DNA from: Malassezia furfur
Lineage: Eukaryota
Assembly: GCA_052055015.1 (NCBI GenBank)
Contig: JBQJIT010000039.1
Direction: 5' to 3' (one strand)
Length of the DNA stretch: 45,368 nt
Positions 3,762 to 14,117 of this stretch are shown here, piece after piece; within the stretch, counting starts at the first letter, position 1, and each line of letters starts with the position of its first letter. The notes under the pieces were generated by a model. The model did not search any database. It worked only from the letters and a program-made list of their open reading frames with translations, and was not told where the DNA came from. Both the position numbers and the translations under genes were made by a program.

Positions 3762-5280
3762 ATGTCGCTTCCCGCTAGTCATGAAGTCCTAACGTTCCTT
3801 GCGGATCCGAATCCGCAGGTGCGACAACTTGCGATGTCGCATGTCGTCGGCTTCAGTGCGAAAGACAGCCCCAGCCGCTCGCTCCTCGTCGACAAGTTGA
3901 CTGACCCCGAAGGACAGCCCCTCCGCATCTGGGATGGGTCTGAGCTGAACGTCGTCGAGCAGATCAAGGAGCTGTGCCACGACCAGCCCGTATGTGTAGA
4001 TGTCTGACGCAGCTCACAATGCATGATGCACTGAGTGCTCTGATCAACCTCTCCGATAGCCCCTCGGTGGCGCTGCGGATCGGTGACGAAGAGTTTCTGC
4101 GATTCTTGGTCGCGTACATTGGCGTACGTACATGCATACTAACAGCAGGATTCGGTGTCACTTTTGGCAGACCTCGCGTGCATGCTCCTGTCCAATCTGA
4201 CCAAGTTTGAGCCAGTGTGTGCGCGTCTTCTTAACCTGGAGGTGGAAGACCGTCCATTCTACTCCTTCTTGTCCCCGCTAGACCTGCAGCTGTCGTTGAG
4301 TGGAATGGATGCAGACCCCAACGACCCCGACTATGAAGAGCGCAAGCGGATCACCGCCGAGGCCACCGAACGGTTGAGCAAGTCGGTGCGGGTAACCGAG
4401 GCGGTCAAGATGCCAGCCCTCATCAAGCTGCTCCGTGCGTTTGAGGAAGGTGCGTCGGTGGAGTCGAGCAGCGCAAGTGCTTCCAACATGCGCGAGCGTA
4501 TTGCGGACACCAAGCGAGATGGAAATGAGCGTCCTGTCGACATCAATGCCCAGGGGCGTCCTGAGGTGCGGCGCAAGTCGGACTGCAACTTCTTGGCCAG
4601 TGTCTTTGCGAATGTGACGGTTCTGCCGCGCGGGCGCGAATTCTTTGTGCAGCCGATTGTAGACGGCGACAAGACGTCTGCCGATGCCTATCCGGTTGGG
4701 CGCATCATGGTGTACACCGAACATGCCAACCTCATTCGCCGTGGTGGTGTGATCAGTGCGCTGAAAAACATCCTGTTCATCAAGCACGCTCACAAAATGC
4801 TGCTGGCACCTGCACCGGCAATGAAAGGCTATGAGGATCATGCGGCGCCCGTGGATGTGCTTCCCTATGTGCTGATGCCGCTCATCGACGGCAAGGAGCT
4901 GAGCAAGGTCGACCTCGAGGACCAGGAGGATCTGCCGGCCGTGTGCCAGCTTGTGCCAGAGGACAAGCCACGCGAGCCAGACACGGCACTGCGTATGATG
5001 TTGATCGAGTGTCTTCTTCTGCTGTGTACCTCGTTGTACGGCCGTGAGAGTCTGCGGCGCCGCGGCGTGTACATTGTGGTTCGCGAAGCCCACCTGGCCG
5101 AGCACAATGAGGAGGTGCGTTTGTGCACGACTGACACAGATTACCGAAGCCATTGCCCGCCTCGTCAACCTACTTAAGCGCGAGGAGTCCGAAGCAACGC
5201 AGCGCGAGGCTGAGGAGGACGTCGAGTTTGCCGAGGAGGCGGAGGAGGACGACGAGGACCTGCAGCTGGAGGTGTTGTAA
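3762..5280 (+). CDS. HGH1: Hgh1/FAM203 eEF2 chaperone
   Basis: LINLS, ADLACMLLSNL, FLASVFANVT, RRGGVISALKN and REPD..LR.MLIECLLLLC motifs, plus an acidic tail. Introns 3990-4012, 4124-4148 and 5115-5139. Confidence 0.93.
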
Positions 5281-5331: not shown

Positions 5332-6157
5332 ATGGGCGACGGACGCGGCCAACAGAGTGCGCCCGCCTGGCTGATGGACTTTACGTCCAATGCTGCCGAG
5401 ACGTTTGTCACTGCGTACTATGCGGCAGCAGACTCGCCACAGCGCGCACAGCTCCTGCCGTCGCTCTACCTCCCTACCTCGTCGATCGCGTGGAATGGCA
5501 ATCCCATCAGCGGCGCGGCGCAGTTCGCGCAGTTGTTGGACGCGCAGCCCGGCTCTCAGCACGAAATCCAGTCGTTTGACTGCCATCCACTCGGCACGAT
5601 GAGTGCATCAGGTGCGTACCAACGTGGCGCATAGCCCGCTGGGCAAGGTCACGACGAGGCAGCCCACCTCTCTCGTGCCTGCCTGGGCGACATTGCCGTG
5701 CTCTTGTAAGGACTCGGTGTGCTCATGTTCAACGCGCGCTAGAGTAGTATGCAGAGCCGACATGCGCCACATTTGCACGCTGAACACGCTTACGCCAGAC
5801 CGTCGCGACGCGCCGTCGCTCCTGCTTGTCGTGTCAGGCACCGTCGCCCACTACACCCCCGAGAGCCTCGCGACGAACGCGAGCAGCGCGCCCAAGTCGG
5901 CGACTACGCCCGCGTCGGCGGCCGCGAGCAAACGCAAGTTTGATGCGGATGCGCCGCTGTCGACGCATCCCCGCGTGTTCAGCCAGTCGTTTGTACTGGT
6001 CAACGGCAACGGCAGCAACACCGAGGGCGGTGTGCCATTCGTATGGACGCAGTCGCGCTCCGTGTCCAAAGGCAAGTCGTCCTCGGCAGACACCGACGGC
6101 CAAAAAACCGTTGCGCGGTACTTTATCCAGGCTGACGCGCTGCGATTCGTAGGCTGA
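5332..6157 (+). CDS. NXT1: NTF2-like export protein (Nxt1/Mtr2 family)
   Basis: AETFV..YY, WNGNPI, HEIQSFDCHP, LLVVSG and RVFSQSFVL motifs of the NTF2 fold. One 187-nt intron (5612-5798) joins the two frames. Confidence 0.85.
5634..5765 (+). ncRNA. Intronic H/ACA-like guide RNA, putative U1 snRNA Psi6 guide
   Basis: Two hairpins (5634-5688 and 5700-5757), each followed by ACA (5690, 5760). The hairpin-2 pocket is AGG/AGUAU, 14 nt from the terminal ACA. The H box is imperfect (ACAUUG). Confidence 0.6.
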
Positions 6158-7366: not shown

Positions 7367-7423
7367 TTCGACGCAGCACGTTGGCCCGTACGCGGGGTGG
7401 GGCGCGCGGGCGAAAGTTTCGTG

Positions 7424-7431
7424 CACGTGAC
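7424..7431. promoter_or_regulatory. CACGTGAC E-box in a divergent promoter
   Basis: Lies between ATG 7366 (-) and ATG 7496 (+). Confidence 0.5.
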
Positions 7432-7495
7432 ACCATGCATGCTCGAGTGATAAGTCGAACGTGCGCGGCGGTGGACGGCCTTTTCGACGACGGCC

Positions 7496-11127: not shown

Positions 11128-13410
11128 ATGTCGACGATCGTGCACTCGTTGCGGGACTACCGTCCCCCAACCAAGGCACAGCAGTTTGCCGAGGCATTCA
11201 GCCTGCCACCCGATGAGGGTCCCTATGTCGATGCTGCGGGGAATCGCGCTGAGATTGTCTCGGCGATCCTTACGCTGTCGAATCCCAATGAAGAGGGCCA
11301 GGAAGACTTGGTGTACGCCGGGCGCCTGACGCTCACGCCCTCGTTCCTGTGTTTTGCGAGCCAGGCGGACAGAGGACGAGGCTGCCGCGTGGCGCTCCCA
11401 CTGAGCACAGTGCGCCGCGTTGAGCGGCTGAATACTCGTGACGCCGTCTTTGCCCTGAGCATTACTGTGTGGCACGGGATGCAGCTCATCTTCCAGCTGA
11501 ATGCGCTGCGGCCCTCGTGTGAGGGGTTTTGCCACGCACTCCGTGACCGATTGCGCGCACACCTGAGTGATATGAAGAAACTTAAACCGTTCCTGGGCGA
11601 GTGCTACAGCGAATATCTGCTGAAGAACGCCGCCGAAGTCACAGGGGAGAGCGGTGGCCCGGACGGCGGTCCCGAAGCCGCGCAGACGGGTGCGCTGATT
11701 GACCTTGGTCAGGAAGGTGCCGCCGGCGCAGGCGCACCGGCGCGCCTGCCGTACCACATGGGCCTCGGCGCGCAGTTTGGCTTTCCTGGCGACCCGAAAA
11801 AGTACGTCGCGCAACTGACCCAGACTGAAAGAAAAGAGCAAAATGCGCCTGTGGAAAGACTACCTCACATTGCACGGGCGCAACATCACACTTCTGCGCT
11901 ACCCACAATTTACGCGCCTCGTCCAAGTCGGTCTACCGAACCAGCTGCGTGGCGAAGTGTGGGAGATCAGCTGCGGCTCCATTCTGCAGCGCATGGCCCA
12001 TCCCGGCAAGTACCAGCAAATTCTTGCCGAGCACGAGGGGATGACGAGCACGAGCACCGAAGAGATCGAAAAGGACCTAAACCGCAGCCTGCCCGAATAC
12101 GCCGCGTTCCAGTCACCCGAAGGCATCGAGACGCTGCGTCGTGTGCTGGTGGCATACAGCTGGAAGAACCGCGAGCTGGGGTACTGCCAGGCGATGAACA
12201 TTGTCGTCGCGGCGTTGCTCATCTACACGTCCGAGGAACAGTGTTTCTGGCTGCTCGATACGCTGTGTGAGCGGCTGCTGCCCGGCTACTACACCCAGTC
12301 GATGGCCGGCACTTTGCTCGACCAAAAAGTGTTTGAAAACCTGGTGCAGACGACGATGCCGGTGCTGCACGAGCACTTTGCCAAGCATGACATGCAGCTG
12401 AGTGTCGTGACGCTGCCATGGCTGCTCTCGCTATACATCAACAGCATGCCCATGGTGTTTGCCTTCCGCATCATCGACTGCTTCATGGCATTTGGCTCGC
12501 GCGTGCTCTTCCAAGTGGGTCTTGCCATCCTCAAAATCAACGGTGAAGACATTCTGCAGCTGAACGACGACGGAACGCTGATCGGGGTGCTGCGCAACTA
12601 CTTCCGCACGCTTGGCGACAGCGCCTACCCGGAGAGCGCCGACCCTCGCCGCCGGCAGGTGACGCGCTTCCAGCAGCTGCTTGTCGTGGCGTTCCGCGAG
12701 TTTGGTCTGATCACGAACGAGACCATCGACGCGGAGCGCAAACGATTCCGGCAGCAGATTGTCGAAGAGATCGAGGCATTTGCACGGCGGTGTGCGATCC
12801 GCAACCTCAAGTCGCACGGCTGCTTCAACAAGGCGCAGCTCGGACTCATCTACGACCAGGTGGTCGAGGCGATCTACCGCGCGCGGCATGCGCCCGAGTC
12901 GCTTACGGCCGGCGATGCGGCGCCAGTGCGCTCCTCCTCGCTGCTCGACCCGACACAGGATCTAAAGGAGATGCGCATCAACTTTACTACCTTTAGGCTC
13001 TTCCTCAGCGAGGTTGCAACGTGGGCGCGCGACGAATACCTGGTGGGCAACGGCCTGCAGGAGCGCATCGAGCGCCGCATTCCCGACCAGGGGCTTGCGC
13101 GGCGCCTCTTTGCCTACTGGGACCAGGAGCAGTGTGGCTCGCTCTCGTTCCAGGACATTGTCACGGGTCTCGACGGCCTCATGCGCACCGACGGCGACGT
13201 CAGCGCCACGATCGAGTGGTTTTTCCGCTTGCACGCGAATGGCAAGGAGAAGCTGACGCGCAACGAAGTGCTGACGCTGTCTGAGTCGTTGCTCTTCAGT
13301 ATGTATGCCTACTAACACAAGTGTACCGGAATGAACCCGGCGACGACCACCTGGGCGCCATCTCCCAGCTCATCACGCAGGCGTTTGAGCTTGGCGGGTC
13401 AGATGCTTAG
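11128..13410 (+). CDS. MDR1: GRAM-TBC Rab GTPase-activating protein Mdr1/Gyp2
   Basis: GRAM-like N-terminus, IEKDLNRSLP and GYCQAMN TBC motifs, and an EF-hand-like region. Introns 11802-11823 and 13299-13321. Confidence 0.92.
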
Positions 13411-14117
13411 GCCGCGTCGTGCTGCGCCTGCTCGTAGCCCTCGAGCACCTGCCGCGCTAGGCTCACGCCGAGGACCTCGCGTAGCTTCTCCGTAGGATCC
13501 TCGCCCTTAGCATCGGCCTCTTCCATAATCCGTTGCACCTGCTCCATGAGCTGGTCCGCCTTGTCGTCCACGTCGGCATCATCGGCGTCGTCCCCCAAAT
13601 CGGCGGGTTCCTCCTCTTCCTCCTCGCCGGCGCGCTGGAGCAGCTCGCTGCGAGGCACCGCCGCCTCGCCCGTTACAGAGCGAAGGTACTCAGCAAGCTC
13701 CTCGTGCTCGTTCATATCGGCGTGCTGGGCGGCCTGGGTCAGCAAGCGACGTACCGTGATGCCCTCATCGTTCTGTAGGCTGGGGTCCGCGCCAAACTCG
13801 GTCACGAGCAGCTCGGCGGTCGGTCGGTCCTCACAGAAAAAGAGGGGCGTATCGCCATCCTCGTCGCGCACATTGACCGCATCCTTCGCCACGCCAGGAT
13901 AGCGCAACAAAAGGCGCAGCAGGTCGTGACGCCCGTAGGACGCCGCAGCATGGATCGGCGTGTACTGAACCATATCGCCTGTCACCGGCGTGACGCCGCC
14001 GTGCTCCAGCAGCAGCTTGACGCGTTCCTCATCTCCGTCAGCAACCGCAATCCAAATATTGGGGCCGTTGTGGACGCGCTCGGCAATCTCCTCTTGGCTC
14101 GGGGTCGCCGTCGGCAT
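13407..14117 (-). CDS. Small acidic ankyrin-repeat protein (YCR051W-like)
   Basis: NIWIAVADGD, YTPIHAAASYG and DEDGDTPLF motifs. In-frame 21-nt intron at 13734-13754. Confidence 0.85.
   Translation of the reverse strand: MPTATPSQEEIAERVHNGPNIWIAVADGDEERVKLLLEHGGVTPVTGDMVQYTPIHAAASYGRHDLLRLLLRYPGVAKDAVNVRDEDGDTPLFFCEDRPTAELLVTEFGADPSLQNDEGITVRRLLTQAAQHADMNEHEELAEYLRSVTGEAAVPRSELLQRAGEEEEEEPADLGDDADDADVDDKADQLMEQVQRIMEEADAKGEDPTEKLREVLGVSLARQVLEGYEQAQHDAA

Follow-up and report, generated by a model that had tools for sequence, protein, structure and literature searches.

Pseudouridines (Psi) 5 and 6 of the U1 small nuclear RNA (snRNA) belong to the stretch with which U1 base-pairs to each 5' splice site. 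In Drosophila, U1 Psi6 is guided by the small Cajal body-specific RNA (scaRNA) pugU1-6 (PMC3884663), and in human, U109 (SCARNA18) guides U1 Psi6 while ACA47 guides U1 Psi5 (PMC7960923). For yeast, a 2021 review describes it as unclear whether the mechanism that forms U1 Psi5 and Psi6 is RNA-dependent (PMC7960923). Fungal box H/ACA guides have been described for U2, namely snR81 of S. cerevisiae (U2-Psi42) and pugU2-43/44 of S. pombe (PMC5473140), and intron-poor fungi including M. sympodialis carry small nucleolar RNAs (snoRNAs) in the introns of RPL7 and NOG2 (Lim et al. 2021, PMC8476143). Here we analyze a 45,368-nucleotide (nt) stretch of Malassezia furfur DNA (contig JBQJIT010000039.1), referred to below as the window, in which a 187-nt intron of an Mtr2/NTF2-type gene had been predicted from the letters alone to contain an H/ACA-like RNA, with a pocket matching the U1 5' end, that would serve as a fungal guide for U1 Psi6.

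The same prediction knew of no described fungal example, and our search of the open literature found no fungal U1 guide either. The text of "The fungal snoRNAome", as far as it was covered, mentions neither a U1 guide nor Malassezia (PMC5824354), the main text of the intronic snoRNA survey uses neither Mtr2 nor NXT1 as a term (PMC8476143), and the 2017 annotation of M. sympodialis, as far as its published description goes, is without snRNA or snoRNA features (PMC5209728). The search yielded no literature on a Malassezia U1 snRNA. The RNA described below would be the first fungal U1 guide candidate.

Box H/ACA anatomy of the intron and its conservation

The minimum free energy (MFE) structure of the intron (positions 5612..5798, plus strand, as for all features of the host gene below) reproduced the hairpin-ACAUUG-hairpin-ACA fold of the original prediction with all of its coordinates. 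The 5' hairpin (HP1, 5634..5688) is almost continuous and has a basal stem of GCCC/GGGC; it is followed by a hinge with the H-box-like sequence ACAUUG (5690..5695), whose last base is G and not A, and by the 3' hairpin (HP2, 5697..5759). In HP2, the 5' strand of the lower stem (5697..5704) pairs with the 3' strand (5753..5759, seen in the MFE fold and in the pair counts), while the upper stem (5712..5745, pairing 5712-5722 with 5734-5745) consists of ACUC/GAGU plus 7 further base pairs (bp), 11 bp with one bulge at A5741, and is capped by an 11-nt apical loop. Between the two stems lies the pocket, whose extent was taken from the alignments: a 5' arm UGUAAGG (5705..5711) with AGG (5709-5711) unpaired, and a 3' arm AGUAUGC (5746..5752) with AGUA(U) (5746-5750) unpaired. 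The 3' arm string AGUAUGCAGAGCCG stands 14 nt upstream of the ACA box (5760..5762), and the mature 3' end is predicted at about 5765. Both arms and the 14-nt spacing were thereby confirmed in sequence and in fold.

Orthologous loci were obtained by scanning metagenome contigs with protein alignment, which gave 19 loci, 7 from Malassezia and 12 from more distant fungi. The seven Malassezia loci comprise four distinct sequences, or five together with the window: L059-L061 are one identical sequence over the compared stretch, with exon 2 of L059 100% identical to M. sympodialis MSYG_3082, and L062-L065 represent a second Malassezia in three variants. The intron is found at the same codon position in all seven and is long (about 170 nt), and the hairpin-H box-hairpin-ACA order is retained. 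A hairpin in place of HP1 also occurs in L059 and L062-L064, with a differing sequence and the basal closure GCCC/GGGC, and directly after GGGC follows the H box, which reads AGAGUA in L059, ACAUGA in L062 and L063, and AAAUGA in L064. The canonical form ANANNA is present in four of the five distinct sequences, the exception being the window; the caveat that the H box is non-canonical, which the original prediction had raised, holds for the window copy, and the orthologues are canonical.

HP2 contains two invariant strings, AAGGACUC on the 5' side and GAGUAGUAU on the 3' side. Across the lineages, AAGG is constant in the 5' arm of the pocket, the base before it is U/C/C and the next one out is G/G/A; AGUAU is constant in the 3' arm, and its sixth base is G/A/G. 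In all five distinct sequences the ACA, itself constant in every orthologue, is located 14 nt past the first A of AGUAU and 0-2 nt beyond the HP2 lower stem. This spacing falls within the 14-16 nt from pocket to box expected of a box H/ACA guide. The MFE structures of HP2 from L059 and L063/L064 are as modeled those of a textbook H/ACA hairpin: a lower stem of 6-7 bp is separated from the upper stem and its apical loop by a symmetric 6+6 internal loop, in which the pocket sequences GCAAGG/AGUAUA or ACAAGG/AGUAUG are open.

The pairing of HP2 was further assessed in an alignment of four distinct rows from three lineages, which is a small sample for covariation. Of the 64 cells given by its 16 pairs, 95.3% are standard pairs. 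Four of the 16 pairs are altered on both sides, two of them in the lower stem. In the upper stem, alignment pair 21-44 reads GC in the window copy and has become CG in M. sympodialis and AU in the third lineage, while GC, GU or AU stands at pair 23-42. Only 4 of 500 column shuffles matched the observed pairing, and when the partner strand was slid by 1-3 columns, the pairing fell to 36-55%. RNAalifold, applied as an independent prediction to the full-length RNA, returned the same HP2 with the pocket left open. The covariation in HP2 is good support for maintained stems, short of proof.

A fourth lineage could be reached through protein. The M. pachydermatis open reading frame (ORF) P0010 has an exon 2 identical to that of the orthologue of this species and starts inside the intron, and it reads RVVCQADI where the window intron in the same frame reads RVVCRADM. 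RVVCQADI is encoded across GAGUAGUAUG, GACAU and the lower stem's 3' strand. P0010 runs through without a frame shift, and therefore the 14-nt spacing is kept. At the level of translated sequence, P0010 is thus compatible with a conserved 3' arm, spacing and ACA in M. pachydermatis.

Taken together, these comparisons show that the pocket and the ACA are kept in the orthologous Malassezia introns, with compensatory stem changes, and that an RNA gene with H/ACA grammar is conserved in Malassezia.

The copies differ in some details. Only in M. sympodialis is the H box followed by an additional small hairpin (GCCGG UCAA GCCGG-like, L059:3903-3925) before the 3' hairpin begins. The distance from the ACA to the ACUAAC branch site is 2 nt in M. 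sympodialis and 1 nt in the second Malassezia (L059:3985-3999, L063:3986-4000), and the predicted 3' end of the RNA overlaps the branch-site motif in both lineages, an unusually tight packing for an intronic snoRNA. The window copy has 17 more nucleotides there, and in addition a terminal stem, which is discussed below.

The guide pocket and its match to U1

The internal loop of HP1 is wholly different among the lineages, and in the window and in L063/L064 it is mostly closed by pairing between its own two strands (window, GGGCA/UGCCU; L063, GGGU/ACCC). When the HP1 arms were scanned per lineage against the recovered ribosomal RNA (rRNA), no shared or convincing site appeared, and as we read it HP1 is structural. 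HP2 is the sole conserved pocket, and under H/ACA geometry its target is 5'-AUACU-U-N-CCUU(G)-3'. For the pairing with U1 we used the 10-mer AUACUUACCU, which we take to be the universal U1 5' end. All three versions of the pocket form 5+3 Watson-Crick pairs with it and hold U6 in the pocket: AGUAU pairs with U1 nt 1-5 (AUACU), AGG pairs with C8, C9 and U10, and U6 and A7 are left unpaired. The same sequence is also seen in supplement 3 of Lopez et al. (PMC2396436). Reading the invariant ACUC/GAGU as a guide rather than a stem was rejected, as it would place the target 18 nt from the ACA.

The original prediction had cautioned that the duplex is short, and that caution stands in part. The pairing known securely is 5+3, and about 8 bp in total is reportedly the functional minimum for a guide duplex; the caution is softened by the conserved (U/C)AAGG when it is set against the fungal sequence ACCUUG(Y). 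Fungal U1 5' ends, as displayed in supplement 3 of Lopez et al. (2008, PMC2396436), fall into two kinds. The AUACUUACCUUG type (ACCUUG) accounts for 13 of the 15 displayed Pezizomycotina rows, the remaining two having CCUUC and CCUUA, and the basidiomycete Puccinia is also of this type with CCUUGCGU, while the AUACUUACCUGG type is displayed for S. pombe, Pneumocystis, Phakopsora, zygomycetes and chytrids, and also for animals. Before these rows were seen, "CCUUG, then U or C" had been derived as the common target of the three pockets: AAGG pairs with CCUU, the variable U/C/C pairs with G12, and the outer G/G/A can pair with U throughout and in two of the three lineages also with C. Should the Malassezia U1 read ACCUUG(Y), the duplex would comprise 5+5 to 5+6 bp, a normal size for a guide.

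Competing targets were sought in rRNA. Eukaryotic ribosomal DNA (rDNA) contigs were found in bacterial assemblies by a primer motif and mapped with Rfam, which gave one complete fungal-type unit (L034, with 18S, 5.8S and full 25S) and three partial ones (L027, L037 and L050). A contiguous-pairing scan, with G-U allowed and at least 3 pairs per arm and 8 in total, returned 18S U33 with 6+3 pairs, three of them G-U, and two sites found only in the small subunit (SSU) rRNA of L037, U1053 (5+3, five G-U) and U1489 (5+3, two G-U). To our knowledge, neither 18S U33 nor the L037 site with two G-U pairs is a known pseudouridine site. No site in the one full and three partial units equals the 5+3 pairs of U1 without G-U pairs, and a scan of these rRNAs allowing mismatches found nothing better than U1; the search for a better rRNA target thus came out in favor of the predicted one.

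These rRNA contigs deserve a remark of their own. At least 58 contigs (L001-L058) in bacterial assemblies or metagenome-assembled genomes (MAGs) carry the 5' motif of eukaryotic large-subunit (LSU) rRNA, and L027, L034, L037 and L050 are eukaryotic rDNA contamination by Rfam, L050 in the MAG of a skin bacterium.

The strongest alternative is that the H/ACA RNA is genuine and serves another substrate, be it Malassezia rRNA, U2, U4, U5, U6, a transfer RNA (tRNA) or a messenger RNA (mRNA), or that it has an orphan role other than guiding. The 5+3 bp secured for U1 leave room for this idea, and arbitrary DNA contains the motif AUACUUNCCU about once in every 130-250 kb (4 occurrences in 510 kb on both strands, with 1.9 expected), and therefore sites exist in any transcriptome. 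On the other hand, only about 0.04 such sites are expected in about 10 kb of stable RNA, no site in the complete fungal rDNA unit matches as well as U1, and the conserved part of the 3' arm corresponds exactly to the 5 nt that precede U6 in U1. A perfect 8/8 match to a position that is pseudouridylated in yeast and animals is unlikely by chance: we estimate about 1.5e-5 for one particular known pseudouridine, and less than 0.2% over about 100 known sites. We therefore regard a different substrate as possible but doubtful, and U1 Psi6, with some reservation, as the most likely target of the RNA.

No U1 gene was located in the window or among the 77 loci. The U1 motif ATACTTACCT is not in the window, and it occurs once in these loci, at L068:4807, a site that we rejected as a U1 gene and read as the reverse complement of a 5' splice site.

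Distribution of the RNA and its alternatives

The motif AGG-N20-70-AGTAT-N9-A[CT]A has a single location in the 45-kb window (both strands) and likewise a single one in each of the seven Malassezia loci, with a second nested start there in L064 and L065; it is found in none of the 12 distant-fungus loci. A covariance model of HP2 (R1) matched the orthologues only, at 78-84 bits over 159 kb, with the next best match at 15 bits, and gave no match in the 12 distant-fungus loci. In the 11 distant-fungus loci that cover both exons, the aligned exon ends are about 70 nt apart with no such structure, too close for an RNA of this kind to fit between them. Among the loci examined, the RNA thus appears to be a Malassezia feature on present data.

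A weak R1 match lies on the minus strand of L062-L064 at about 7380-7469 (11-15 bits, E 0.13-1.4, one lineage). It showed no H/ACA features on inspection and is probably due to chance.

An Rfam search, one of the checks proposed with the original prediction, assigned the RNA to no family: at the gathering threshold neither the window nor the seven Malassezia loci gave a match, and no scaRNA family appeared at E values up to 10. The matches to mir-370 (19.8 bits) and SNORA67 (14.8 bits) are sub-threshold and were taken as chance. A processing RNA of the snR30/U17 type was dismissed, since its m1/m2 loop motifs are not present. The loops of HP2 in the window and in L059 contain no CAB box (ugAG), the core of which is UGAG; a CAB-box-like UGAG is located in the apical loop of HP2 in L062-L064 only (L063:3945-3948).

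The intron of the window copy also contains a terminal stem, in which the 5' strand GUGGCGCAU (5623..5631) pairs with 5762-5770. This stem of 9 bp is perfect, bridges both ends of the intron and encloses both hairpins, and it is seen only in the window copy; it may aid the splicing or processing of the longer 3' tail of this copy. Such a bridge would also fit an element that acts in cis on the splicing or regulation of the export-factor gene. Another form of this idea is a split mimic of a 5' splice site, to which U1 would bind in autoregulation: the two pocket arms, taken together, give a consensus 5' splice site (AAGG..AGUAU), and the host gene encodes an mRNA export factor. Export factors are a class known for intron-based autoregulation. 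Yet the stem has no counterpart in L059 (M. sympodialis) or L063, where the ACA comes right up to the branch site, the exon ends of the distant fungi are only about 70 nt apart with no such structure, and a folding aid would not need the conserved H/ACA grammar of hinge H box, ACA and 14-nt spacing. It seems, then, that a cis-acting element is an improbable explanation of the intron.

The single hairpins reach z scores of -1.2 to -2.5 against mononucleotide shuffles. That a long, GC-rich intron merely folds this way by chance and matches U1 by coincidence, as the z score of -1.2 for the whole intron and the lack of an Rfam match might suggest, has almost no probability left and is in our view already refuted, because the boxes, the pocket and the spacing are conserved with compensatory changes although the host exon 2 protein is only about 62% identical. 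Single-sequence thermodynamics alone does not exceed chance; conservation does.

Host gene and introns of the window

The window has a G+C content of 60.5%, and the relatives of its proteins are from Malassezia. The host gene (5332-6157) consists of exon 1 (5332..5611) and exon 2 (5799..6157, including the stop codon), which join in frame to 639 nt. Exon 1 matches the Pfam families Mtr2 (E 2.4e-8) and NTF2 (E 3.5e-7), and therefore "NXT1/Mtr2-type export factor" is by its domain matches a fair name for this NXT1-like mRNA export factor gene, in line with the NXT1 label it had been given. The closest named relative of the exon 2 product is that of M. psittaci (79% identity), followed by M. vespertilionis (70%), and the identity to M. 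pachydermatis and to M. sympodialis is 62% each.

The 187-nt intron between these exons, as originally delimited, is a GT-AG intron with GT at 5612 and AG at 5797-5798, and by protein alignment it has the same position as in the annotated Malassezia orthologues. Two candidate branch sites, CUGAAC (5780-5785) and CUUAC (5788-5792), were proposed within 5780..5792 from the sequence, with the CTRAC-N(2-5)-AG in which the short introns end as the model. A search of both strands with a regular expression for splice signals found about two dozen candidate introns of 21-29 nt in the window, mostly of the form GTACGT...CTGAC..AG (for example 5115-5139, 11802-11823 and 13734-13754), with GTGCGT, GTATGT and GTAAGT as minority 5' splice sites. 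The claim that the long intron is about 8 times the typical size agrees with these candidates, by a heuristic measure. A conserved RNA explains the survival of one intron of about 190 nt where introns are otherwise about 22 nt.

Public ORF predictions P0001-P0004, P0010 and P0019 begin in the intron, so that the RNA gene is partly translated as protein. Among the products of such gene calling, RVVCQADI comes from M. pachydermatis and IGFYKDSICEEGAPYSSSMR from the L064 lineage, and the region should be flagged accordingly.

Discussion

According to the above-described analysis, the intron would encode a box H/ACA guide RNA of about 130-135 nt, extending roughly from 5630 to 5765. By analogy with established H/ACA biology, the spliced and debranched intron would be trimmed by exonucleases to the H/ACA core, which would be protected by the proteins Cbf5, Nop10, Nhp2 and Gar1. 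The 5' hairpin would be structural and the 3' hairpin would carry the guide pocket, in which AGUAU would pair with U1 nt 1-5 and (U/C)AAGG with nt 8-10 (CCU) and probably nt 11-12. U6 and A7 would stay free of pairing where the upper stem begins, at a distance of 14 nt from the ACA, a geometry that would direct Cbf5 to U6. Presumably the ribonucleoprotein pairs with the capped 5' end of U1, and U6 is converted to pseudouridine. This scheme implies that Malassezia U1 starts with AUACUUACCU(UG), that the RNA accumulates and that U1 Psi6 depends on it.

We are highly confident that the intron RNA is a real, previously undescribed box H/ACA RNA. The joint statement that it is a real H/ACA RNA and also the guide for U1 Psi6 we hold with less assurance, as somewhat probable. 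The reading of the original prediction as a fungal U1 Psi6 guide is supported at the level of sequence, the H/ACA anatomy being conserved and no better rRNA target being present in the rDNA scanned. For the broader proposition, that one fungal lineage or more forms U1 Psi6 with an RNA guide, supplied by an unrecognised H/ACA family in the intron of an export-factor gene, we see an even chance.

Several observations weigh against a U1 Psi6 guide. With respect to the RNA itself, the window copy has the H box ACAUUG, and its HP1 is by our own reading only about 12 nt from that box, the distance from pocket to box being about 14 nt in L059 and L063. The terminal stem would put the last A of the ACA in a helix, and SNORA67, the best H/ACA match in Rfam, scored far below its threshold of 45 bits and was misregistered. 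The conservation comes from three lineages as DNA, and from the fourth via a translated ORF only. With respect to the target, the scan covered rRNAs only and no snRNAs, tRNAs or other small RNAs, and the rRNAs are not known to be those of Malassezia. Supplement 2 of Lopez et al. lists no U1 for M. globosa, Ustilago or Cryptococcus (PMC2396436), and a U1 of the ACCUGG type, as in Phakopsora, would leave 5+3 bp followed by an A-G mismatch. Finally, the short introns of the window mostly start with GUACGU, which pairs imperfectly with canonical U1, and therefore divergence of the Malassezia U1 is possible; the C at +4 would mismatch U5 of canonical U1, and the Malassezia U1 either tolerates this mismatch or differs there.

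A fungal H/ACA RNA with a U1 Psi6 pocket makes the RNA dependence of fungal U1 modification directly testable, and if the assignment is true, it gives a first handle on the pathway that forms Psi5 and Psi6 in fungal U1. In that case, related pockets (CAAGG ... AGUAU-N9-ACA) are predicted in other fungi whose U1 reads AUACUUACCUUG. Five of the roughly two dozen short introns of the window, about one fifth, start with GTGCGT and have G at +3, which Psi6 would face. Pairing with G is reportedly strengthened by Psi (PMC7960923), and a link between the two is speculative.

Among the known systems, pugU1-6 and U109 have the same predicted job: in them, too, the H/ACA pocket engages the very 5' end of U1, where 5 nt or fewer are available on one side (PMC3884663, PMC7960923). 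However, the Malassezia RNA has no detectable similarity to them in sequence or by covariance model, and unlike them it has a fungal host and is encoded in an intron of only about 190 nt. The yeast RNAs snR81 and pugU2-43/44 are likewise Cbf5 guide RNAs that act on spliceosomal RNAs in fungi, but their target is U2, and they are independently transcribed or lie downstream of a gene (PMC5473140). The closest parallel in gene organization is snR191 in the intron of NOG2, likewise an H/ACA RNA that is the apparent reason for the persistence of an intron in an intron-poor genome; it differs in guiding 25S rRNA and in being present in most fungi (PMC8476143), whereas the Malassezia RNA is located in an Mtr2/NXT1-type gene, has no rRNA match and, among the loci obtained, occurs in Malassezia only.

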